In this document: positions 2,660 through 63,379 of the stretch, piece by piece
Layout of the letters: the number at the start of each line of letters is the position of its first letter
How positions within the stretch are numbered: position 1 is the first letter of the stretch
IMG/VR virus record: IMGVR_UViG_3300045988_130413
Direction: 5' to 3' (one strand)
Length of the DNA stretch: 64,000 nt
Origin: a virus
Program-made: the position numbers and the translations under genes
The notes under the pieces: model-generated
What the model saw: the letters and a program-made list of their open reading frames with translations, nothing else
Told to the model about the DNA's origin: nothing
Database searches by the model: none

Positions 2660-3301
2660 TCATATTTTTTCAATACTGTCAAAAGGATATTCTTTTCCTG
2701 TGATTTCACTACAGATAGTATTCCATGAATAAAATAATGGTTGATAAACTGGTGGAATCCATTCAAAAGAAGAACAAATAATTAAAACATCTGGAGCATA
2801 TTTGTCATCTTCTAAATTAAAGTCTTTTAAGACATAATCTTCTGTAACATATCTTGCGGCCTCGCTTGGATAAGGGTCAGAATTTTCATTGTGAATCCAA
2901 TAAAAAGTATCAACCATTTTCTTATCTCTTGCATATTTGACCCAATTACTTAAATCATATTTAAACATTGGGCGCATCCAGTCCGCAGACTCCATATCAT
3001 ATCCTAAGTCATGATGATGGTCAATATTATATAAATCAATCTGCTCATCATGAGGAATCGTTTTAAGAATATCAATCACTTTATCATGGCTATTTACAAA
3101 ATAAATTTCTTGATTTTGCTTTGCCGCACGTACAATATAACGAGTTAGATAATCATAAATATATAAATTGGCGGGGATATTTGTAAGAAATGAAAATTTA
3201 TCTACATAATCTTTCATTGGGTCTTCAATATCCACCATATTATTATAAAAACTAATACTTGGTTCCATAATAATATCAAAATCTATTGTAACTACATTCA
3301 T
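2660..3301 (-). CDS. hypothetical protein
   Basis: 213-aa ORF, compact spacing with neighbours, no recognisable motif. Confidence 0.4.
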   Translation of the reverse strand: MNVVTIDFDIIMEPSISFYNNMVDIEDPMKDYVDKFSFLTNIPANLYIYDYLTRYIVRAAKQNQEIYFVNSHDKVIDILKTIPHDEQIDLYNIDHHHDLGYDMESADWMRPMFKYDLSNWVKYARDKKMVDTFYWIHNENSDPYPSEAARYVTEDYVLKDFNLEDDKYAPDVLIICSSFEWIPPVYQPLFYSWNTICSEITGKEYPFDSIEKI

Positions 3302-34447: not shown

Positions 34448-34472
34448 GGAAAGGATTTTTAAAATCCTTTCC
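34448..34472 (-). terminator. perfect hairpin terminator between tandem promoters
   Basis: GGAAAGGATTTT-TAAAATCCTTTCC. Confidence 0.55.
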
Positions 34473-34488
34473 TTAACTTTCTATATAT

Positions 34489-34517
34489 ATTATATAATAT
34501 TTTTTATAAAATATCAA
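34489..34517 (-). promoter_or_regulatory. consensus phage promoter, copy 2
   Basis: TTGATA-17-TATAAT plus conserved downstream ATATATAGAAAGTTAAGG. Confidence 0.5.
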
Positions 34518-34742
34518 TTAAATATCAATTTCTGCATCTAACATAAAATTTTCAGCCTTAATTTTTTCCCAAGCTTCTTCTCTCTTCTTTTTTCGATGGA
34601 AGATAGATTTAACTTTCATAACTTCTGATATTGCCTCTGCACTGACCATAGCAGTAAGCATTGACCATTGCCCATCACAAGCTCGTCTATTAGCCCAGTC
34701 AGAGAACTCGTCAAATGTAACATCTTTCATTTTTTTCTTCAT
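34518..34742 (-). CDS. hypothetical protein
   Basis: 74-aa ORF. Confidence 0.35.
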   Translation of the reverse strand: MKKKMKDVTFDEFSDWANRRACDGQWSMLTAMVSAEAISEVMKVKSIFHRKKKREEAWEKIKAENFMLDAEIDI

Positions 34743-35925: not shown

Positions 35926-36237
35926 TTAATCTAACCTTTCATCACAGTATTTATCTACAAAAGTTTCAAAGCCCATTCTCGCACAAATTACATCAAGCTC
36001 ATCGGCTGTCTCTTTAACAGAATCTTTAATAGAATAAATAATCCAATTATATTCCTGCTCAACAGTTTCATCTTCATCATTTAATCCAAAAGATTCAGCA
36101 ACATTATAAGCCATTTCATAACCATAATCATTGGCTTCTTCAATGTCATTTACATCTACAACTTGACAATTATAGATTCCATGCAGTCCTTGATAAATAC
36201 CTTCAGTTGCATAAATATAAACTCTCATAAAAAACAC
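35926..36237 (-). CDS. hypothetical acidic protein
   Basis: 103-aa ORF. Confidence 0.35.
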   Translation of the reverse strand: MFFMRVYIYATEGIYQGLHGIYNCQVVDVNDIEEANDYGYEMAYNVAESFGLNDEDETVEQEYNWIIYSIKDSVKETADELDVICARMGFETFVDKYCDERLD

Positions 36238-36258
36238 CTTCCTTAACTTTCTATATAT

Positions 36259-36287
36259 ATTATATTATATTTTTAATAAAAAATCAA
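36259..36287 (-). promoter_or_regulatory. consensus phage promoter
   Basis: TTGATT-17-TATAAT. Confidence 0.5.
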
Positions 36288-36308
36288 AGGAGGACTATTG
36301 TCCTCCTT
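36287..36308 (-). terminator. hairpin terminator
   Basis: AAGGAGGAC-TATT-GTCCTCCTT followed by U-run. Confidence 0.5.
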
Positions 36309-44929: not shown

Positions 44930-45112
44930 TTAGTCAAGTCTTACTTTTTTAGTATAAAGTTTCTTTTCAACGATGCTTCCGCATTCTGGACATCTAAAAT
45001 AAGAAAAAATAGAATTTCGACATTCATCTTGTGACGCAATAAATACACAATGACATTTTGAACATTTTAACCGATAACCATATTTTTCGCCAGATTTAAA
45101 AATTTTAATCAT
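44930..45112 (-). CDS. zinc-ribbon protein
   Basis: CSKCHC...CPECG. Confidence 0.35.
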   Translation of the reverse strand: MIKIFKSGEKYGYRLKCSKCHCVFIASQDECRNSIFSYFRCPECGSIVEKKLYTKKVRLD

Positions 45113-45145
45113 TTCTTTTTATCCTTTCCTTAACTTTCTATATAT

Positions 45146-45174
45146 ATTATATTATAATTTTAATAAAAAATCAA
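45146..45174 (-). promoter_or_regulatory. consensus phage promoter
   Basis: TTGATT-17-TATAAT. Confidence 0.5.
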
Positions 45175-45186
45175 TAAAGGAAAAAC

Positions 45187-45975
45187 TTATTCAGTTTTTC
45201 CTTTATCAAAATTAGGAGATTTTCTAAAATAAGCAGGAAGTAAATAATTTGGGTCGTTCCATCTTTTCCATATCTCGTCTAAGTCTTCGATTACTTTAAA
45301 ATATTGTTCAACGTGCGGGCGCTCTATTCTGTCTGCATGAAAGTGACCAAAAAGCCAAACATTCCAATTAATCTTATCTTTAAAAGAATCAAACCAAACT
45401 TCCATAGAATCATCTACAGTGGACTGGTCAATCATAGATAAAAACAAATCAGTTGGTTCCCAACTTAATGGACAAGTATGAGTAAAGACAAAATCAAAAT
45501 TTTGTCCTGCATACATCGCTTCAATAGTCTGCATTTCTGCTTCTGTTAACTGCTCATTTGGATACCAAGTATAATGATTTTCAAGTCTATACCACTTATC
45601 CACAGAATAAGCTCCACCTATTACAAGCGTATTATGACCAAGAAAATCATAATTAGAGCCATCCATGAGATAATGGATATGAGGATAACCGGGTTCAATG
45701 AAAACATAATTCGCAACATCATCATCCCAAACCTCTTCAATACCTTTAACATCTTCTGGACGAGCTTCATGATTCCCCCTTACTAAATAAAATGTGCATC
45801 CATATTGTTCAAGTTGCATCTTAATATCATGTCGCCTTGCCGCACTCTTGTAAAAATTAACCCCTGCATCTCCTAAGATAATAATACCAGTCTCTTTTGG
45901 ATTTTGTATTTCAAGCCATTCAAAACGATCCATACAGCCATGAGTATCTCCTGTTACAAAAAACTGTTTAATCAT
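45187..45975 (-). CDS. calcineurin-like metallophosphoesterase
   Basis: GDTHG, GDAG, GNHE, GHFH motifs. Confidence 0.65.
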   Translation of the reverse strand: MIKQFFVTGDTHGCMDRFEWLEIQNPKETGIIILGDAGVNFYKSAARRHDIKMQLEQYGCTFYLVRGNHEARPEDVKGIEEVWDDDVANYVFIEPGYPHIHYLMDGSNYDFLGHNTLVIGGAYSVDKWYRLENHYTWYPNEQLTEAEMQTIEAMYAGQNFDFVFTHTCPLSWEPTDLFLSMIDQSTVDDSMEVWFDSFKDKINWNVWLFGHFHADRIERPHVEQYFKVIEDLDEIWKRWNDPNYLLPAYFRKSPNFDKGKTE

Positions 45976-46793
45976 TCCCTTTCCTCCAACTCAAAAGCAA
46001 TACTTTTCTTCATAATTTCTGCTTGAACTTCTTGAAGAAGATTTTCAGCTTCTTCATCAGTATAGTTAAATTCAGAATCTTTTGTATATGGGGCACAAAT
46101 TTTATCAATATGAGCCATATGTTCATCTGCAACTTTAATAGCTTTTTCTTTTGGATAAAGACCAGTTTTAATGTCTTTTAAATATTGCGGGTTAGCTGGA
46201 CATAAACATTCTTTATATGGTGCTCCAGCGATATATTTATCGAGGTATTCATCAATTCTTACAAGCTGATAAAGCTGTTTTGGGTCATAGTTAAACTTTT
46301 CAAAAGCTTCTTTATGTGCTTCAGTCTCTTTAATAAGAGCATATCTTTTTCCAAGAGCAATACCAGACATAGCCTTTACTGCGAAATAAGGATTATAATG
46401 TGCAATAACTTCATTTTCCGCAATTAATTTATTCCATTCTTTTTCATACATTGGATTGATGATTTTATAATTAGTGAAAAGAATCTCAATAAAATTTAGA
46501 TTCTGTTTGCGGAAAGTATCAAACATAAGTCTAATATCTTTAAAGTCAATATGCTCTCCATTAGCCCTAAAATGAGTTGTAGACATAGGCTTACGATTAT
46601 AAATAAAATCATTTAATGTTGGAGTGGTAATAAGTTTTGTATCAATATCAGAATCTTCAGTCTCAAGACCGTAATTCTGACTACCTTGCAGAAAAATACC
46701 TACAATATTATTTTTAGCAAAGTATTGTTTAGATTCAAGATAATGCTCTTGAATACCACTCGCAGTTTTAATTATTGTATTAAGGTCTGCCAT
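45972..46793 (-). CDS. Pol-beta superfamily nucleotidyltransferase
   Basis: GIFLQGSQNYGLETEDSDIDT (GS...DxD). Confidence 0.55.
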   Translation of the reverse strand: MADLNTIIKTASGIQEHYLESKQYFAKNNIVGIFLQGSQNYGLETEDSDIDTKLITTPTLNDFIYNRKPMSTTHFRANGEHIDFKDIRLMFDTFRKQNLNFIEILFTNYKIINPMYEKEWNKLIAENEVIAHYNPYFAVKAMSGIALGKRYALIKETEAHKEAFEKFNYDPKQLYQLVRIDEYLDKYIAGAPYKECLCPANPQYLKDIKTGLYPKEKAIKVADEHMAHIDKICAPYTKDSEFNYTDEEAENLLQEVQAEIMKKSIAFELEERE

Positions 46794-46825
46794 ACTTTCT
46801 CACCTTCCTTTAACTTTCTATATAT

Positions 46826-46854
46826 ATTATAATAAATTTTTAATAAAAAATCAA
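46826..46854 (-). promoter_or_regulatory. consensus phage promoter
   Basis: TTGATT-17-TATAAT. Confidence 0.5.
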
Positions 46855-47254: not shown

Positions 47255-47683
47255 TTATAAGAAATAATGTAATACAGGAATATATTTATCCCGCAATTTT
47301 TCAGTAAGCGTATCAGTTAAAGTCATATGGTCTTTCATATCTGCCTGTTTAACGATAAAAGCATAATCATCTTTTGCGTCAATAATTTTATGAATATAAT
47401 CTTCATATTTTTCTTGAGGGTCTTTTGTTAAAAGAACTAATGAATTATAACTCTCTATTCCCAGAATAGACATTAAATCTTCTTTTGGACATTCAGTGTC
47501 TTCTAACAAATCGTGCGCCAAAGCAATCATATAAGCTTTTGTTATATCCATTTTTAAAAGGTCAGCTTTTGCGGTCGCATATTCAGCAACCCGCAAAGCA
47601 TGAGCTAATTTTTTCTTAGGATAATATTGAGCTGCTAAAGTGAATAATTTATTCATTTTTGTAATATCATAATTATAACCCAT
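47255..47683 (-). CDS. HD-domain phosphohydrolase (YfbR-like 5'-deoxynucleotidase family, DatZ-like)
   Basis: HALRVA...ALAHDLLEDT (H..HD..D). Confidence 0.6.
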   Translation of the reverse strand: MGYNYDITKMNKLFTLAAQYYPKKKLAHALRVAEYATAKADLLKMDITKAYMIALAHDLLEDTECPKEDLMSILGIESYNSLVLLTKDPQEKYEDYIHKIIDAKDDYAFIVKQADMKDHMTLTDTLTEKLRDKYIPVLHYFL

Positions 47684-47991: not shown

Positions 47992-48856
47992 TTATTCTTC
48001 TCCTATATAAATTAAATCATCAACGTATTTGCGGTCTTCGCCTTTTAAAATAGGCATATTTTTATCAATAGCCCAGATAGGTCTTTCTTCAATAATTGTA
48101 GTTGTAACTCTATCTTCTCCAAAAGGCTGAGGTTCTCTTTTTATATTTTCAGTTACTTTTGTTGCAACTTTAATACATGCAGTTCCTCGTTTACATGGTA
48201 TTGTAAAGTCATTCCAGTTAATGCCATATTTGGTCATTAACATATCTTGAATCATATTACAAGTTTTATCTTGAAGTTCATCATGTGAAAAATGAGCTTG
48301 TCCAACCATTTGAATACTATTTCTTGTTGCATCAAGTTGCCGCCAATAAATGAGGTTAGTTACCTCTTCTTTTGGAATGTTAAAACATCTGGCATCAAAC
48401 ATTGCCCCTTTTTCTACTGCACTTATATAATTGTCAAGTAAGCCTTCTCTTCTCTTTACAAGGGGGTCATGAGTTAAATTATATTCAACTACATTTTCAG
48501 AAAAATATTTGTTAAAAGCCATTGTTGCCATAGAAGCTGATACAGAGGTTAATTTTTGAACCTCATAATCAAACCAAGCATCTGAAGTGAATTTTTGATA
48601 ATCTACTAAAATCAGAGTAATTTCATCTGATTGTGTATATCCAAAAACGCAACCTTGAATATTTTCACATAGATATTTCATTGTTTGTTGCATTGTATCC
48701 ATTAGCACAAAGTCAAATGGTTTTTGAAAACCTCTTGTAAAAGTATGAAACGCCTTGCCGTCAAAGACGTATCGCTACTGGTGTTCTTCTCATAAGAACA
48801 GTTTTACTAACTTTTTCATAATTTTTCATTCTGTTAGCTAAATCACTTCTATCCAT
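47992..48856 (-). CDS. Thg1-like 3'-5' nucleotidyltransferase (tRNA-His guanylyltransferase family); needs +1 frameshift at CUU UGA C (~48763-48769)
   Basis: N-terminal frame MDRSDLANRMKNYEKVSKTVLMRRTPVAIRL then stop; +1 frame continues DGKAFHTF...FVLMDTMQQTMKYL...VFGYTQSDEITLIL...YWRQLDATRN, matching Thg1 VVVRLDGRNFHRF...IAYGQSDEYSFVF...SWRQ. Confidence 0.65.
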
Positions 48857-49151
48857 GCGATGTATACCATTCTTTTAAAGTTTTTATACACTTATCATAA
48901 TAATCATATTCGCTTTTTCTTATTTTTCCCTTATGCCATAAAATTTGATATGGCTTTAAATGTCCATAAGCCCAAAAATCATAAGTATATTCGCCATCAT
49001 GCCACATTAAATGTGGACAAAATACTTCATTTAATCTTGCGGGAATGTATTTTATCTTTACTTTTATAGGATGCTTAATCTTAGCTTTAATAGCTTCGAT
49101 TAAGCAATTACTATAAAAATATTCAGAGATATATGTCATAATTTTGGACAC
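48849..49151 (-). CDS. hypothetical protein
   Basis: 100-aa ORF, stop overlaps Thg1-like start (ATGGATAG). Confidence 0.35.
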   Translation of the reverse strand: MSKIMTYISEYFYSNCLIEAIKAKIKHPIKVKIKYIPARLNEVFCPHLMWHDGEYTYDFWAYGHLKPYQILWHKGKIRKSEYDYYDKCIKTLKEWYTSHG

Positions 49152-57817: not shown

Positions 57818-58906
57818 ATGATTTATTTAGATAATAATGCGACAACTAAGCCTTTTCCAGAAGTAATTAAAATATTTGAAGAATCTTCTTTTGCTAATCC
57901 ACATTCAACCCATTCTGCAGGTTTATTAGCAGATAAAGAGCTACAGTCCGCAAAAGAAAGTATTGCAAAAGATATTGATTGCGAACCAGACGAAATATAT
58001 TTTGTAGGAAGTCCAACAGAAGCCTGTAATTGGGCAATTCAAATTTTACGAGATAAAGAATGTAAAATAAATTATCATAAATATGAACATAGCGCAGTAT
58101 TAAAACCTATTTTAGCTTTTCCAGAAGTAGAGAATCCTAAACGAAATGGATATGTACAAATGCTTGTAAATAATATTTATGGAGAAATTTATAATATCCC
58201 CATAAGAGAACATGAAGATGATATTATTTTTTGTGATGGTACTGCGGCGATTGGGCATATTCCTTTTAGTTTTAAAGAATCTGGTATTGATATGCTTGCT
58301 TTTGGAGCACATAAATTCAATGGATTAAGAGGAATCGCTTGTTTAATAATTAAAAAAGATTTACTTCCAGTCCGTTCATTATTATGGGGTGGAGATATAA
58401 CTGGCGGCACTCCTTGCCAAGGTCTTGCATCTGCAATGGCATATGCTTTACATAAAAATATTGAGCATATGAGCGAAAATACAAAAAAGACTAAAGAAAT
58501 GCAAGATTATATTATTAATGAACTAACTACAATTCCATTTTCACGAATTAATGGACCGATAGGAAATAATAGAATTTCTAATAATGTAAATATTAGTTTT
58601 TCATATATATCTGGTTCAGATTTACAAAAGTATCTTAGTGATTATAATATTTGTGTTTCTACTGGAAGCGCTTGTGATTCAAGCAGTTTTGTTGAGTCCA
58701 GAGGTGGTATTTGTGTGCGGCCATTGAAAAAAGATAATCGAAGAGAACCTGAATTGGTTACAATATTTAAAGCCGGTGGAATGGATGAAGATGATGCAAA
58801 AAGTTCAATTAGAATTACCTTAGATGCAAATTATAATACTATGGAAGAAATTGAAGAGTTTATTAACACCCTTAAAAATATTATTAAATTAAATAGACCT
58901 ATATAA
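57818..58906 (+). CDS. NifS/IscS-like cysteine desulfurase (class V aminotransferase)
   Basis: LDNNATT, FANPHSTHSAG, PLP-lysine region AFGAHKFNGLRGIACLII; only plus-strand gene. Confidence 0.7.
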   Translation: MIYLDNNATTKPFPEVIKIFEESSFANPHSTHSAGLLADKELQSAKESIAKDIDCEPDEIYFVGSPTEACNWAIQILRDKECKINYHKYEHSAVLKPILAFPEVENPKRNGYVQMLVNNIYGEIYNIPIREHEDDIIFCDGTAAIGHIPFSFKESGIDMLAFGAHKFNGLRGIACLIIKKDLLPVRSLLWGGDITGGTPCQGLASAMAYALHKNIEHMSENTKKTKEMQDYIINELTTIPFSRINGPIGNNRISNNVNISFSYISGSDLQKYLSDYNICVSTGSACDSSSFVESRGGICVRPLKKDNRREPELVTIFKAGGMDEDDAKSSIRITLDANYNTMEEIEEFINTLKNIIKLNRPI

Positions 58907-58907
58907 C

Positions 58908-58945
58908 AAAAAATCCAGTCTTAATAATAAGACTGGATTTTTTGT
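58908..58945. terminator. bidirectional terminator
   Basis: A6-TCCAGTCTTA-ATAA-TAAGACTGGA-T6. Confidence 0.6.
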
Positions 58946-59283
58946 TTTTCTTTTTGTTCACGTCTATCTCTTTCAATTTTACGCATTTCTTTTAGTCGCT
59001 TACAATTATTGCATCCATGATGATCACAATTACAATCCCAACAGCCATCAGTATCTAACCAAAACCAATTTGGTGGTTGCGGTTTAGGTTTGCGAAAAAT
59101 CTTTTTCTTGCTCATCCATACTCTCCCATCTGCGACGGTCCATTCGACACCAGTTACGCTTGCCCGCACTATAATGTCCTTTTGGATTTGTTTTAAACTG
59201 ACCAGAGCAACATTCACATGAACAAAAATTCTTATTTTTACTATAGGCATGAAGATTTCTATACCATCCATCTTCCCATCCAT
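58921..59283 (-). CDS. hypothetical Cys-rich protein (frame-overlapping with 59084..59365)
   Basis: CWDCNCDHHGCNNC; 200-nt overlap with neighbour in another frame. Confidence 0.25.
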   Translation of the reverse strand: MDGKMDGIEIFMPIVKIRIFVHVNVALVSLKQIQKDIIVRASVTGVEWTVADGRVWMSKKKIFRKPKPQPPNWFWLDTDGCWDCNCDHHGCNNCKRLKEMRKIERDRREQKEKQKIQSYY

Positions 59284-59365
59284 ATACTACTTCAGCAATA
59301 TATCTTTTGTGTTTTGCTTTTCTGATAGATTGTTTTCTTCTAATTCCTCTGGCATTTCTTCGCAT
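59084..59365 (-). CDS. hypothetical basic Cys-rich protein
   Basis: AGGAGG RBS 6 nt before ATG; CSCECCSGQ. Confidence 0.4.
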   Translation of the reverse strand: MRRNARGIRRKQSIRKAKHKRYIAEVVYGWEDGWYRNLHAYSKNKNFCSCECCSGQFKTNPKGHYSAGKRNWCRMDRRRWESMDEQEKDFSQT

Positions 59366-59414
59366 ATGAAACCTCCTATATTAAAAATATAAAGGGGGCA
59401 TATGCCCCTTTATA

Positions 59415-59765
59415 TTAAAGTGTTTTTTCAATAGCCGCAACATTGGCTTTTGCTACATTGCAAGCCTCATTTGCGTCTAAAAGATATTCCTGCATTTTTA
59501 CAAGATGTGTCTGAGCTTCGATAACTTCCTGGAGCGCCTCAGAAACTTTACTTGCGGCTCTCTTAGCTCTTTTTTCTGCAATCTTTGCATTACAACGGGC
59601 AATAGCAAGCTCAGTACCTTTTTCTACATCAAAGGTGTCTCTTGGGTCTGCCTTTGCATAGCCTTTTACATTTTTACCTGCATAAGTGCTTACTGCAATT
59701 ACTTTCCGCTGATTCTGGTCTACAAATACCCGATATTTTTCTTTACCAAAAGTAGTTTTCATCAT
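59415..59765 (-). CDS. hypothetical protein
   Basis: 116-aa ORF behind consensus promoter. Confidence 0.4.
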   Translation of the reverse strand: MMKTTFGKEKYRVFVDQNQRKVIAVSTYAGKNVKGYAKADPRDTFDVEKGTELAIARCNAKIAEKRAKRAASKVSEALQEVIEAQTHLVKMQEYLLDANEACNVAKANVAAIEKTL

Positions 59766-59805
59766 TTTTTAAATCTCCTTTATCTCTTATCTTTAATATA
59801 AATAT

Positions 59806-59834
59806 ATTATATAATATTTTTTATATAAAATCAA
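59806..59834 (-). promoter_or_regulatory. consensus phage promoter
   Basis: TTGATT-17-TATAAT. Confidence 0.5.
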
Positions 59835-59859
59835 TATGGCAATCTTTTTGTCTAAAAAA

Positions 59860-60295
59860 TTCTAAAACGCTTTTTTGTTTTGGGTTTGCGGTTCTCTCGT
59901 TCGGGTCCGGCGCGAGCAGCTTATGCTTTTCATATGAGCTGGATTTATATAAAAAATAGCCAATAAAAACCTTTTCATGCGACCCCTTACTTTGCAAGCG
60001 TTCATTATTCATGCTCCTTGCACTAAACCCACCTATAAAAATCCATCAGGGGCCTGGTTCACTACTTTAGTTTTTATTGACTATCTTCCCATTAACAAAG
60101 TCTTTATTCAATATGGTCAACTTAAATAGGATTGTTTAAAAGACTGTATTAAGGATACCTTATAATTCGTGCCATATTCACTACACATAAATAAAATACC
60201 TATTATTTTTAAGAGCCTGCCTACCTCTTATGCAGCAGTTAGTCCCTGCTTGCCGAAGCCAGTTATTAAAGGGAACTGTTAGGTTGCACCCTGAT
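59860..60295 (-). ncRNA. ORF-free, GC-richer structured region downstream of interrupted tRNA 2 (candidate ncRNA)
   Basis: ~435 nt without convincing ORF (the 59821..60012 ORF is likely spurious), many local hairpins. Confidence 0.25.
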
Positions 60296-60339
60296 GGGGA
60301 GTGATGGAGTCGAACCACCCGAGACCGAAGCCACCAGTT
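60296..60339 (-). tRNA. 3' half of second interrupted tRNA gene (T-arm + acceptor 3' strand)
   Basis: AACTGGTGGCTTCGGTCTCGGGTGGTTCGACTCCATCACTCCCC; ACTCCCC pairs with GGGGAGT at 60812-60818. Confidence 0.4.
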
Positions 60340-60762
60340 TTATGCCTTATCCAAGATTTGAACTTGGTATTTATAAGTTTGAAATCCTTGATTATTTATT
60401 GTAGGAGCATTTCGTAAAGCTATTCTATTACGATTACCAGCTTTAAGAATATCTTTTACTGGAATACACCACATGTCTAAATTTTTATTTACACAAAATA
60501 AAAAATCAAGCTCAGAATGATTTATAATATTATCATAGACGGCTCCTTTTGTCCCTCCTGTATTTCTCAAACTAATTTCTCCACTTTCAGTTTGAGTAGC
60601 TTTACATTGTACAGTTTTTAAAACACCGTCTTTTTCAATTATCAAATCATACCACTGAGTGTCATTTAATGGAAGAGAAACTGTATATCCTTGACAAGTA
60701 AAATAATTTATTGCCATACTTAATCCAATTCTTCCAATTTGTTTTCTATTAATTTCATTCAC
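60340..60762 (-). CDS. Hjc-like PD-(D/E)xK nuclease encoded inside interrupted tRNA gene (paralogue 2)
   Basis: GTG start with AGGAG RBS; GYTVSLPLNDTQWYDLIIE...LKTVQCK aligns with 54605..55027 product. Confidence 0.5.
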   Translation of the reverse strand: MNEINRKQIGRIGLSMAINYFTCQGYTVSLPLNDTQWYDLIIEKDGVLKTVQCKATQTESGEISLRNTGGTKGAVYDNIINHSELDFLFCVNKNLDMWCIPVKDILKAGNRNRIALRNAPTINNQGFQTYKYQVQILDKA

Positions 60763-60780
60763 TATAAAATCTCCTATTAA

Positions 60781-60818
60781 GACCAGACTGGCCTGCTACC
60801 CCTACAGTATAACTCCCC
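60781..60818 (-). tRNA. 5' half of second interrupted tRNA gene
   Basis: GGGGAGT-TA-TACT-GTAGGGGT-AGCA-G-GCCAG-TCTGGTC. Confidence 0.4.
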
Positions 60819-60823
60819 GAGAT

Positions 60824-61174
60824 TTAAATGAAATCAACTTTATCAAACATTGGAGCATAACTCTTAACATGATTATGAGTTAAAATGCCCATCAAAGTTT
60901 CTTTATCATTTTCTTCTATAATATAAATATGAACTGTATCACTTGTAATAGCTTGTCTACCTTTTGGAGCAGTTAATAATTTAGCACATTTCTCAACTCT
61001 TTGCATATCAGTTGTGTTTAATTCCATGCGTCCTCGACTACTAACAACCGCAAATATTGGTTTGCCATTTTTAATTTTCGGCTTTGTATCAATAATCTTA
61101 CCGCACCAATTAATATTATATTCTTCATGTACATCTGTTACAATAAGATGAGTCTTTACTAAAACTTCTGCCAT
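60824..61174 (-). CDS. hypothetical protein
   Basis: 116-aa ORF. Confidence 0.35.
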   Translation of the reverse strand: MAEVLVKTHLIVTDVHEEYNINWCGKIIDTKPKIKNGKPIFAVVSSRGRMELNTTDMQRVEKCAKLLTAPKGRQAITSDTVHIYIIEENDKETLMGILTHNHVKSYAPMFDKVDFI

Positions 61175-61180
61175 TATTCT

Positions 61181-61372
61181 TTACTCCTTAAAAGAATTGA
61201 AGAAATTCATTATATCTTCATTCACCTGTCTTGTTTCAATATTCTCACTCCTTGGAGCAGATTTAGAAACATGAGATGGATGTTGCTCTTTCCAACAGGG
61301 AAGAAAATGTTTTGAAAGACTTTCTTCTTTTTCAAATTTTCTTTTACAAGTAGGACAAATATACATATTCAA
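61181..61372 (-). CDS. small zinc-finger protein
   Basis: CPTCKRKF...HFLPC. Confidence 0.35.
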   Translation of the reverse strand: MNMYICPTCKRKFEKEESLSKHFLPCWKEQHPSHVSKSAPRSENIETRQVNEDIMNFFNSFKE

Positions 61373-61380
61373 TCTCCTTT

Positions 61381-61800
61381 TATTTATAAGCTACTCTTGT
61401 AGAAATAGTGTGATTAAAAATAGCCAGATACTAAAATATTCTTTCTTAGCAGGAAAGCGCCCTATATGAGCAATATAATTGCTGTATGTATCTGTTTATT
61501 CACTTCATTAAAAGATGACGCTTTTAATGAAATTAGCTTTCGATACCATCTCTGTCAAGCCCTTAGCTTATAAGGACAGTGAAGTGTAAGCCCCTCACCA
61601 GAATCTCATGCTTCCCATTGATTTACAAGGCTATAGCACAAAGCAACCTTGGGAGACTCTCATAGGTCATCTATGGCTGAGCATCTTCCTTAACTCAGAC
61701 TTTAAAATATTAAACCGTGCTACTTATTCCTAAACTATTTCGTAGCTATCTCCATCAGCATCATTTCAGATACTATACACATAAGATTTTGTGATTTAAT
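61381..61800 (-). ncRNA. ORF-free structured region upstream of tRNA-Gln (candidate ncRNA/leader)
   Basis: ~420 nt, no ORF on either strand, moderate GC. Confidence 0.25.
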
Positions 61801-61806
61801 ATTAAA

Positions 61807-61878
61807 CTGGGGTAGCTGGATTCGAACCAGCGAATACGGCAGTCAAAGTGCCGGGCCTTACCGCTTGGCGATACCCCA
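61807..61878 (-). tRNA. tRNA-Gln (anticodon UUG)
   Basis: TGGGGTATCGCCAAGCGGTAAGGC...CGGCA-CTTTGAC-TGCCG...GCTGGTTCGAATCCAGC-TACCCCA; near-identical framework to E. coli tRNA-Gln. Confidence 0.85.
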
Positions 61879-61883
61879 TCATT

Positions 61884-61950
61884 TCAAGACACATTTTGAA
61901 TTATTGCCTAACCACTTGGCTATTTATGCACCCTGAGCATAAAACTGGAT
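61884..61950 (-). ncRNA. rearranged/possibly permuted tRNA-like element
   Basis: 17-nt exact copy of the tRNA-Gln T-arm (CTGGATTCGAACCAGCG), then TTTATGC, 7-nt spacer, complementary GCATAAA, then U8-A9 and D-arm GCC-AAGTGGTTA-GGC. Confidence 0.3.
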
Positions 61951-62302
61951 TCGAACCAGCGTTAATAATTTGCTATAAGCAAAATTTGCTGTGTGTGTCT
62001 TAAAAGATATTTCTTAAATTTTTAAAAGAGAGGTTTTTAATTAACAAGACTCGTAAAGTTCTAATAGTAATCCTATCAATAATCCCTATTTACTTCAACT
62101 CAAATTATTGGTCATCGGCTGGAGCCGGACTACCGGCGTTCTTGTTATCCTTTTAATTACATTAAAAGAAATTTGCTGATCCGAGTCTATTATATTTTTA
62201 ATAATCGGGTGGATTTGCACTCGCCTTACCTCTGTAACCTACAGAACCCTTGGAAGATAAACTTCCTTAGCACCTTGCAATTATTATTTACTTTATATAT
62301 TT

Positions 62303-62331
62303 ATTATATCATTTATTTTATAAAAAATCAA
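62303..62331 (-). promoter_or_regulatory. consensus phage promoter driving ~320-nt untranslated leader and tRNA array
   Basis: TTGATT-17-TATAAT. Confidence 0.45.
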
Positions 62332-62953
62332 ATGATATAATGCCTGGCGTTTCAGGTACTTTTTAACCCTAACTTGCGGAATGCCGCAAGGTCTGATATT
62401 CACGCGTGCTCCTTTAGTACCATGGGGCTTAGGTCTCGACCAAGTAGCGGTACTCATTTCATAGCCGGGGCTCTTGGAAGATGGTTTAGTTCGTTTTATA
62501 CCGCCTACTCCTTAGGGCGGGAGTCCTATGGAATGGATTCGAACCATTCTAATAGTTATATATTCTCGATTGTACTTATTAAAATACTCATAATGTTTTT
62601 CCTGACTATTATCATTATTTTCTTAAAACAGTTTACTCTCTACCTTCAAACCTTTTCTTAACGATACCCAAGTGTTTTTCTAAAATATTCCAGCCAGTTG
62701 AAATAAATAGAAATCAATCGTGCATAGGATAATATATACTTTTTAATACTTGGTGTGCTATTACGCCAAAAGAGAATTCATCCTTACCAGTTACGGGGTG
62801 ACTTCATACTTCTTTTCCAGATGTGTGCGGTTTTAGATAAATATTCTGGATTTTAACTTATCATCCTTCTTACTCCTACTTGAAGAAGCCTCACACATAA
62901 AAGCTCTACTCTTTAAAAGATGGCTGCCTCTAAGCCAACTTTCCAAGTATTAA

Positions 62954-63027
62954 TCGGAATGGCGGGATTCGAACCCACGACCTCTTCATCCCAAATGAAG
63001 CGTGCTACCAAGCTGCACCACATTCCG
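62954..63027 (-). tRNA. tRNA-Pro (anticodon UGG)
   Basis: Acceptor CGGAATG/CATTCCG, anticodon arm CTTCA-TTTGGGA-TGAAG, T-arm GTGGG-TTCGAAT-CCCGC. Confidence 0.85.
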
Positions 63028-63249
63028 TTTTAATTCTCAAGACGAAATCCTCCCGTGAGGACAAGATACAATCAGGAGTCGAACCTGAAGGTTTTTAGTA
63101 TATGCAGTATATTCTTTTGAATTAAATAATATTGCAGACTTCGTCTTTTAGTTAATAAAGTCTTTTCTTTCTTTACCGCCACCTCATTCTTTAGACGGAA
63201 GAAATTTCAAAACTGATTGGAAAGAGTACCTTTATTAACTTATATATTT

Positions 63250-63278
63250 ATTATATCATTTATTTTTATAAAAATCAA
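63250..63278 (-). promoter_or_regulatory. consensus phage promoter upstream of tRNA-Pro leader
   Basis: TTGATT-17-TATAAT. Confidence 0.45.
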
Positions 63279-63307
63279 TTTATTTTATTTTTTGATTTTT
63301 ATAAAGA

Positions 63308-63379
63308 TGGAAGTGGAAAGAATCGAACTTTCGTGACGGCGTTATCAGCACCGCATACTAACCGTTGTATGACACTTCC
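63308..63379 (-). tRNA. tRNA-Ile (anticodon GAU)
   Basis: Acceptor GGAAGTG/CACTTCC, D-arm ATAC-AACGGTTA-GTAT, anticodon arm CGGTG-CTGATAA-CGCCG, T-arm GAAAG-TTCGATT-CTTTC. Confidence 0.85.

Follow-up and report, generated by a model that had tools for sequence, protein, structure and literature searches.

Why does the gene for a Thg1-like enzyme break off, immediately ahead of its catalytic aspartate, at a stop codon and continue in another reading frame? The gene in question lies on the minus strand of IMG/VR virus record IMGVR_UViG_3300045988_130413, of which a stretch of 64,000 nucleotides (nt), hereafter the window, was analyzed; between positions 48856 and 47992 (865 nt, i.e., 3n+1) it is split into two frames. 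An earlier, sequence-only reading took the site of the frame change for a textbook copy of the +1 frameshift site of prfB, and offered expression-level control of the repair enzyme or a homopolymer indel error as explanations. We consider it probable that the split is the inherited 1-nt insertion of a mobile endonuclease cassette, and that ribosomes would correct it by prfB-type +1 slippage without a Shine-Dalgarno (SD) element. With the split, a gene family new to this kind of recoding would have acquired a shifty stop of the prfB type, though not the stimulator, apparently within a homing endonuclease cassette.

The Split Gene and Its Product

The first open reading frame (ORF1; MDRSDLANRMKNYEKVSKTVLMRRTPVAIRL) starts with an ATG at 48856-48854 and ends with the codons CGT CTT, after which comes TGA. 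The second (ORF2) opens in the +1 frame with GAC GGC AAG GCG (DGKAFHTFTRGFQKPF...); it begins with the catalytic Asp of the RLDG motif and also holds the SDE motif. The coordinates of both are given in Table 1. If the T at position 48763 is skipped, the two frames join into a protein of 287 amino acids (aa), about 33 kDa in size.

The joined product matches the Pfam family Thg1, PF04446 (E 3.5e-31; 108.3 bits, cutoff 29.2), over residues 8-161 and positions 2-130 of the 130 in the profile. To the family of the C-terminal domain, PF14413, it gives 18 bits only, which is under the cutoff of 26.3. The Thg1-like protein of Bacillus thuringiensis, 4KGK, is matched with E 3.9e-53 over residues 6-229, and ORF1 matches residues 4-29 of 4KGK. 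This alignment is free of gaps at the frame junction, where PVAIRLDGKAFHTFTRG in the joined product stands against PVIVRIDGAHFHTYTKG in 4KGK. D32, the first +1 codon, and S76-D77-E78 align with the same residues in 4KGK, and both D-G and SDE are invariant among relatives. By homology, the joined product would be an enzyme of the tRNA 5′-end repair type, performing 3′-5′ nucleotide addition. The assignment of the gene to the Thg1-like family by the sequence-only reading is borne out by these matches, and the +1 change that it had placed at CGU CUU UGA C was confirmed, on the minus strand, in both coordinates and sequence.

By itself, the heptamer CTTTGAC is within chance expectation, as it occurs 6 times in the window when both strands are counted. 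What goes beyond chance is its location exactly at the frame junction defined by homology, together with its recurrence in 17 other contigs. The Lys-C junction peptide of the joined product would be TVLMRRTPVAIRLDGK for the window and SVLMNRMPVILRLDGK for Eubacterium plexicaudatum ASF492; because this carrier is a cultured strain, the idea is directly testable. Gene callers give such genes as a truncated 238-aa ORF, so that a recurrent functional gene would be mis-annotated in gut phage catalogues.

With bacterial and phage Thg1-like proteins, such as that of B. thuringiensis, the product shares the Thg1 domain, the Asp of RxDG, and SDE, and its gene stands in phage DNA that also encodes tRNAs and an HD-domain protein. 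It differs in the +1 change needed after codon 31 and in an insertion of ~23 residues. This insertion, around NVVEYNLTHDPLVKRREGLLDNY in the Thg1 domain, is absent from 4KGK and hypervariable among relatives. It corresponds to window positions ~48400-48500 (ORF2 codons ~90-120 past the site), where nucleotide identity drops to 0.23-0.28 at about 270-360 nt beyond the shift site in both allele groups.

Occurrence of the Split in Other Genomes

The relatives compared were 80 of 324 Thg1-like loci. In this IMG/VR set, R-[LIV]-D-G lies in one frame in 78 of the 80; one contig (L004) is split like the window, and another (L010) was not resolved by the search pattern. L004 carries the same CGTCTTTGACGG, the form with the extra T, the form without it being CGTCTTGACGG. 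With 238 differences from the window in 6.9 kb (96.3% identity), L004 is a different genome.

Three collections (viral, metagenome, and genome) were scanned with TTTGAYGGNARRKCNTTYCAYAC, in which the base ahead of TTT was left free. All Thg1-like matches with C at the free base are +1 splits, and all come after CGT, so that every split reads C-TTTGA. Matches with T at the free base (L088 and L136), which serve as controls, are ordinary in-frame R-F-D-G genes, and no ATT+T or GTT+T split was found in the scans of the three collections.

Counting the window, the split alleles number 18, all of them CGT CTT T GAY. The 17 other carriers are L004, L138, L093, L092, L102, L083, L094, L084-L087, L109, L114, L117, L141, L113, and L116; L141 is contig AQFT02000004.1 of the isolate genome of E. 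plexicaudatum ASF492, and L138 is a metagenome-assembled genome of a human-gut Clostridia member. The carriers were drawn from many projects, samples, and assemblers, and their DNA diverges by 4% to about 40%. Outside the window's own lineage, their joined proteins are 51-66% identical to that of the window. In the 16 alleles whose gene is complete within the fetched DNA, neither ORF1 (29-33 codons from the homologous ATG) nor ORF2 (226-269 codons) is interrupted.

Among 164 GenBank phage records that include a Thg1-like gene, the split at this site is absent. The only two-piece match in GenBank is an unannotated Thg1-like gene of Bacillus phage BCP12 (L151; KX987999.1, 46051-46766), in which the frame changes near residue 68 in one genome; this break is a sporadic lesion or a sequencing error.

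Could the assembly of the window simply hold one T too many? Seen from the window alone, all the evidence is a single-base difference in a short T run, and an error of sequencing or assembly would account for it. A homopolymer error was always a weak explanation, because the run is only three T long. The same extra T is present in distinct genomes, namely in L004 and in the protein-divergent carriers described above, an isolate genome included, which come from different projects and assemblers. The break in BCP12, which is truly sporadic, sits elsewhere and in one genome. In intact genes, moreover, ATT GAY (50/79) is about five times commoner than CTT GAY (9/79), and random T insertions or read errors should therefore mostly strike ATT. 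The homopolymer error suggested by the sequence-only reading is accordingly rejected, its chance of being correct being negligible.

In the literature searched, we found no link between Thg1 or Thg1-like genes and frameshifting. The main text of the GeneTack survey does not mention a Thg1 split (supplements not searched).

A Homing Endonuclease Cassette Upstream of the Split

In 10 of the 18 split alleles, a LAGLIDADG_2 endonuclease gene (PF03161; E 6e-20 and 4.9e-20, cutoff 25 bits) lies directly upstream of the split gene. The protein has the motifs GALLGDGSL and WYIGDG(G/S) as well as NUMOD/HTH DNA-binding domains. There are two types of it, 50% identical to each other: one of 358 aa in L084-L087, L109, L114, L117, and L141, and one of 341 aa in L138 and L093, both of which belong to the window's own lineage. 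A C-terminal endonuclease remnant of 30 residues (E 3e-9) is left in L083 and L094, which brings the alleles with gene or remnant to 12 of 18. Five more, namely the window (partially), L004, L092, L102, and L113, have the 5′ untranslated region (UTR) of the cassette (GAAAGGAGTTATAYA) without the endonuclease gene. For the last allele, L116, the upstream sequence covers 99 nt. The window itself holds no endonuclease homolog. By contrast, among the 18 IMG/VR alleles that carry CGT CTT GAY GG in frame, none has the endonuclease and none has the cassette UTR. It should be noted that a query with a single endonuclease protein matched only its own contig, and that distant homologs were found with an alignment as the query.

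The boundaries of the cassette can be read from identity profiles. In the L084 group (7 contigs), identity in 100-nt bins is 94-100% from about -1250 up to the site, a block that comprises endonuclease, UTR, and ORF1. The block is flanked upstream by 7-59% identity, and the first bins past the site are at 0.8-0.9. This block of ~100% identity, with the endonuclease and ORF1, ends exactly at the extra T. Cleavage by the endonuclease at or close to the site would produce such a pattern, as the stretch from the gene to the cut would always be co-converted, and the stretch beyond the cut variably.

Empty sites are found in L001, L002, L003, L005, and L008, where the upstream gene ends with ...KEWKERGK and a stop codon and is followed by an intact Thg1-like gene. 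The ORF1 segment of the empty sites is different (MPIRDDLGTRMKTFYENIPKTRLMRRVPVAIRL, with AGG CTG GAC; the L001 allele reads ...GCAATTAGGCTGGACGGCAAGGCGTTTCATAC...), and sister genomes with 94-96% identical backbones have the ordinary unsplit gene. In L138, an additional 1,157 nt with the endonuclease gene interrupt sequence that is collinear with that of the window on either side (94.8% and 96.8%); downstream of the gene follow the UTR and ORF1 of the cassette and then the extra T. The heterology that separates cassette from empty-site alleles stops within 1-3 nt of this T.

The junction found in L004, GAATGGAAAGAAAG/GAGTTATACATCGC, is what would be left by a deletion between AGAAAG repeats, one at the end of the upstream gene and the other in the ribosome-binding site of the Thg1-like gene. 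At its own scar (Table 1), the window lacks 12 nt more than L004, and its ORF1 has for this reason lost its own SD. The upstream ORF now stops within codons 2-3 of ORF1, and this suggests that ORF1 of the window is translated by coupling to it, which is the likely route for an ORF without an SD of its own.

Based on these comparisons, we propose the following course of events. A mobile cassette, made up of a free-standing LAGLIDADG endonuclease gene, a conserved 5′UTR, a replacement ORF1, and the extra T, would enter still intact Thg1-like genes in related phages. Its endonuclease most likely cleaves within the conserved coding sequence of RLDGKAFHTF or directly beside it, and in the repair the whole stretch between the endonuclease gene and the cut would be copied. 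Owing to the extra T and the heterologous ORF1, an allele once invaded would escape further cleavage. A small deletion would later have removed the endonuclease from the window and L004, leaving the split in place. At CGU CUU U GAC, tRNA-Leu(GAG) would slip from CUU to UUU while termination at UGA is slow; Asp-tRNA would then read GAC, giving the full-length enzyme with an efficiency that is probably low and that falls as RF2 activity rises. The insertion would probably have been retained since the context CGU CUU UGA C would let ribosomes restore the frame, which would make it a "savior indel". The fullest form of the proposal is that the extra T serves as the immunity determinant of a mobile LAGLIDADG cassette that invades the catalytic-site coding sequence of phage Thg1-like genes, the single-nt insertion being corrected by SD-independent +1 slippage at CGU CUU UGA C. 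We put this form forward tentatively, as an idea that may be right but that we rate somewhat below an even chance.

A compensatory role of this kind is likelier than a regulatory one, because the split travels with an endonuclease cassette that ends at the extra T. In a stand-alone regulatory +1 frameshift, the site would tune the level of the Thg1-like enzyme by RF2 activity, and its link with the endonuclease would be incidental. The shifty stop and the fourth-base C are indeed the same as in the autoregulatory site of RF2 (PMC12421855, PMC13245932), any shift at UGA is necessarily responsive to RF2, and the site persists in endonuclease-less genomes. Against this stand the near-complete link with the endonuclease (gene or remnant in 12 of 18 and the UTR in 5 more, compared with 0 of 18 in-frame CGT CTT GAY alleles), the coincidence of the cassette boundary with the extra T, the sister genomes that manage with an unsplit gene, and the absence of the SD element that underlies the high and tunable efficiency of prfB. 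We regard stand-alone regulation as improbable. Of the expression-level control suggested by the sequence-only reading, a selected and translationally corrected shift site is favored by the comparison of alleles; regulation as the reason for the site finds no specific support, the split being part of a traveling cassette.

In L148-L150 (2501-4177), an endonuclease homolog of 36% identity lies directly upstream of the Thg1-like gene. The latter is unsplit, and its segment after D-G has diverged, with RIDGRSFKNYTRG instead of DGKAFHTFTRG, which is possibly immunity by substitution rather than by insertion. In L095 and L106 (ENA OFGL01002808.1 and OFHA01008941.1), the site homologous to window 48740-48770 belongs to a cassette variant in which the G of CGT is deleted. 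There, CTT CTC TTT GAC restores the frame (VILLFDG), and a second 1-nt deletion follows 8 codons downstream (CAT ACG TCA CC), where there is no slippery motif. The lesions are inherited, because the same ones occur in two contigs with different ORF2s, and this is probably a decaying allele.

Predicted Decoding at the Shift Site

The prfB site combines the sequence AGGGGG, a spacer that is UAU or UCU, the stop CUU UGA, and a C as the fourth base; altering any of these four elements lowers the efficiency, and the full motif yields 52.7% in B. subtilis (PMC12421855, PMC13245932). The shifty stop CUU UGA is present at the frame junction in 18/18 split alleles. The C directly 3′ of UGA, which gives a weak UGA-C stop context, is present in the window and in 6 of the 7 lineages (L113 has U), compared with about 25% GAC in intact genes. 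The Thg1-like gene also resembles prfB in that a short ORF1 (31 codons, about 25 in prfB) precedes a long +1 ORF with the functional protein, and the mechanism would be the same, that is, re-pairing of tRNA-Leu(GAG) from CUU to UUU during slow termination at UGA. It differs from prfB in that its product is not RF2, so that there is no autoregulatory loop, and in that the site looks like a recent insertion in a mobile cassette rather than an ancient trait of the family, as 78 of the 80 close relatives are unsplit. Because only two of the four prfB elements are present, the efficiency is probably well below that of prfB.

Other routes to a corrected product would be slippage during transcription, a special tRNA of the phage that reads CUUU as a quadruplet, a reassigned TGA, or a two-piece enzyme whose ORF2 has its own start. 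The phage does have tRNAs, six of them in the window, which covers 64 kb of a genome of roughly 190 kb. All six are ordinary, and the only Leu tRNA among them has the anticodon UAA; the special tRNA was rejected on this ground. For polymerase slippage, three T in a row are not enough. TGA acts as a genuine stop in the window, where it ends 12 of 60 long ORFs, and reading it as sense yields no homology, so that reassignment was likewise rejected. In the +1 frame, no ATG, GTG, or TTG occurs from the preceding stop to GAC. ORF2 alone cannot give an active enzyme, because no +1-frame start precedes the catalytic Asp codon, and its independent initiation was rejected as well. Taken as a group, these routes are very improbable.

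Correction by Ribosomes or Loss of Function

The main rival to correction by ribosomes is pseudogenization driven by the endonuclease. A selfish cassette would spread a broken allele, homing would outweigh the small cost of losing an accessory gene, and no useful frameshifting would take place. A T put into an in-frame CGT CTT GAC, as found in 18 intact alleles, yields the heptamer automatically. The divergence of ORF2s behind near-identical cassettes points to recent invasion, and open ORF2s need not mean selection after it. The gene is also lost or broken in relatives (an in-frame TAA in L008; the double lesion of L095 and L106), and the SD stimulator is absent.

The comparison of lineages, however, argues against a mere defect. 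ORF1 travels always with the cassette and is useless alone, yet its dN/dS between lineages is 0.2-0.5, that of ORF2 being 0.12-0.35. In three non-overlapping lineage pairs, 27 of 58 synonymous sites of ORF1 have changed, compared with 47 of 225 non-synonymous sites (Fisher p=1.8e-4). ORF1 keeps its ATG, its open frame, and its Thg1 N-terminal motifs across lineages that differ at about 38% of nucleotides (mean identity 0.62), and most lineages, though not the window, keep a strong SD for it. At the site itself, CGT CTT T GA is invariant while nearby synonymous sites vary. When the codons of seven lineages are aligned, an invariant residue with six-fold degeneracy (R, L, or S) occupies 16 columns; 14 of these use 2-5 codons, and the only single-codon columns are the CGT and CTT of the site. 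The other invariant Arg columns use 2-5 codons, compared with CGT alone at the site in all 7 lineages. With values of 0.72 and 0.69, the ORF1s of L083 and L116 resemble intact alleles more than they do the other split ones (0.60-0.61), and still their site is identical. The endonuclease-less alleles (the window, L004, L092, L102, and L113) keep both ORFs intact, and between the window and L004, which have the same type of scar, ORF2 shows 36 synonymous changes and 1 non-synonymous change. The comparative evidence favors a selected, translationally corrected shift site over a defect. We hold functional +1 correction to be probable, and pseudogenization by the endonuclease to be unlikely, even if it has more to recommend it than the other alternatives.

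Several observations weigh against correction by ribosomes. Within about 20 nt upstream, no allele has an SD-like stimulator (AGGGGG/GGAGG, 3 nt before CUU); the 12 nt upstream of CUU are GTAGCGATACGT in the window and GTCATCCTTCGT, GTGGCTATACGT, GTAATAGTACGT, and similar sequences elsewhere, none of them SD-like. The spacer, which is the E-site codon, is CGU in every allele and not the UAU/UCU of prfB. The "textbook" prfB site of the sequence-only reading thus holds for CUU UGA and the fourth-base C, and fails for the AGGGGG element 3 nt upstream and for the spacer. CGU pairs strongly in the E site, which is the opposite of the published tie between efficient +1 shifting and weak E-site pairing (PMC2377451). 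From -60 to +97, RNAalifold found no conserved RNA structure (-5.55 kcal/mol, 0 compensatory pairs, only a trivial CGUC/GACG 4-bp palindrome around UUU), and Rfam gave two sub-threshold chance matches only. With neither SD nor structure, the shift efficiency may be very low. In the window, moreover, the SD AAAGGAG ahead of ORF1, which is kept in L004 and L138, is deleted.

The remaining points concern the evolutionary evidence. The signal of purifying selection in ORF2 may be largely "borrowed", because a gene entered by the cassette had been intact up to that point; behind their near-identical cassette, about 50% of the synonymous sites differ between ORF2s of the L084 group. A single origin of the cassette would also make the split lineages less than fully independent as evidence. 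An independent origin for every lineage was considered and proved only partly tenable; as the cassette UTR is common to 6 of the 7 lineages, they are treated as related. The Thg1-like gene is also evidently dispensable in some relatives, given the TAA of L008 and the lesions of L095 and L106 that lack a slippery motif.

In L008 (3001-3870), which is endonuclease-less and unsplit, the in-frame TAA stands where relatives have CAA (Gln, codon 46: GGTTTTTAAAAACCA), and the gene is otherwise 95% identical. This suggests that the gene can be lost in this phage lineage, or an assembly error. L021 (~3030-3045) has an in-frame TAG for the Gln of relatives, FYE(stop)IPK compared with FYEQIPK, in a Thg1-like gene that is otherwise intact; either a nonsense mutation or the recoding of TAG to Gln, as known from some gut phages, could account for it.

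The site also forms a small inverted repeat, CGTC-TTT-GACG (window 48759-48769, minus strand; CGTCTTTGACG), which is invariant in 6 of the 7 lineages. As an RNA structure within the ribosome, a repeat of this size would be of no consequence; it could bear on DNA recognition by the endonuclease or on the frozen CGT.

Relation to Known Systems and Significance

To our knowledge, the bypass of phage T4 gene 60 has for decades been the sole recoding signal within a homing endonuclease cassette. The work on T4 MobA and gene 60 is reported by citing papers to be that of Bonocora et al. 2011 (PNAS 108:16351). According to two later sources, MobA moves together with the bypass insert of gene 60 as a single mobile element, in which the insert gives protection from MobA; in some genomes the endonuclease has been lost and the recoding cassette kept (PMC5009743; bioRxiv 10.1101/2022.08.31.505936). 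A recent survey still calls the T4 gene 60 cassette unique (bioRxiv 10.1101/2022.08.31.505936).

The Thg1-like locus resembles the T4 system in three respects. The gene of a free-standing endonuclease would move as one unit with a recoding element that follows it closely in the target gene; the element interrupts a conserved coding segment around a catalytic metal-binding site, and recoding would still yield the protein; and in some genomes, as in the window, the endonuclease is lost or degraded and the recoding element is kept. The differences are that the endonuclease is of the LAGLIDADG family here and of the HNH family in T4, that a 1-nt insert with predicted +1 slippage takes the place of a 50-nt gap that is hopped, that the Thg1-like target is not split into two genes, and that protection from cleavage, which we infer here, has been demonstrated in T4.

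A "savior" indel with compensatory low-level frameshifting is known from G-run mutants of herpes simplex thymidine kinase (Atkins et al. 2016, PMC5009743). In both cases the indel would be useful for another reason, and would be tolerated as a shift-prone context restores the frame in some ribosomes. The presumed gain is endonuclease resistance here and drug resistance there, and the context is a stop-dependent +1 site here and a homopolymer run there.

The free-standing endonucleases SegF, SegG, and MobE of T-even phages carry out intronless homing. As proposed here, an intergenic endonuclease cuts a conserved neighbor gene in genomes that lack it, and the flanks are co-converted, leaving an identity block from gene to cut. 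In these systems the donor is resistant by substitutions or by the insertion itself, with no frame change.

If the proposal is true, the locus would be the second known case, after T4 MobA and gene 60, of recoding as self-protection of a homing endonuclease, and the first that uses frameshifting. Consisting of one base and a prfB-like shifty stop, it would be mechanistically much simpler, and would suggest "recoding as endonuclease immunity" as a general way to invade conserved catalytic sites without an intron or intein. As a side effect, the expression of a tRNA-repair enzyme would be coupled to RF2 activity. The locus would also provide a natural test, in Firmicutes, of CUU UGA C +1 shifting without an SD stimulator and of the invariant E-site CGU.

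Genomic Context

The window has 31-35% G+C and is almost wholly coding on the minus strand. No close relative of it was found among GenBank phages; its relatives are viral contigs of 150-195 kb, and L138 and L141 indicate that the host is probably a Clostridial gut bacterium. The features of the locus and its surroundings are listed in Table 1. An HD-domain protein is also encoded about 2.5 kb from the split gene in the ASF492 locus (L141). The tRNA genes fit a large phage that keeps its own tRNA pool beside genes of the tRNA-repair type.

Table 1. Position of the split Thg1-like gene, its predicted shift site, and neighboring features in the window
Feature	Position	Strand	Remarks
ORF1 (0 frame)	48764..48856	-	31 codons, ATG...CGT CTT; N-terminal part of the Thg1-like fold
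CGT, E-site codon at the moment of the predicted shift	48767..48769	-	same in every split allele
Predicted shift heptamer CTT TGA C	48760..48766	-	P-site CUU at 48766-48764; identical in 18 alleles except GAT for GAC in L113
0-frame stop TGA	48763-48761	-	T predicted to be skipped, 48763; the C is both the fourth base of the stop signal and the last base of Asp GAC
ORF2 (+1 frame)	47992..48762	-	256 codons plus TAA (47994-47992); first codon GAC at 48762-48760
Putative endonuclease-loss scar	48857..48872	-	junction GAATGG/TATACATCGC, upstream gene against remains of the cassette 5′UTR
Upstream 100-aa ORF	48849..49151	-	TAG stop overlaps ORF1 codons 2-3 (ATGGATAG); no Pfam family
Microbial-type PARG/macro-domain protein	49347-50156		PF10021, E 4e-29; two genes upstream of the Thg1-like gene
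HD-domain protein	47255-47683		two genes downstream of the Thg1-like gene
Pol-beta-type nucleotidyltransferase	45972-46793		sub-threshold Pfam match
Six tRNA genes	53621-63379	-	Cys-GCA, Lys-UUU, Leu-UAA, Gln-UUG, Pro-UGG, Ile-GAU

A dispersed intergenic repeat of 50-60 nt, TTGAT(T)TTTTATTAAAAATATAATATAATATATATAGAAAGTTAAGGAAGG, lies just upstream of start codons at window positions 46775-46850, 45110-45185, 36230-36292, and 34460-34520 on the minus strand. It looks like a repeated phage promoter (TTGATT ... TATAAT) with a leader and a ribosome-binding site.

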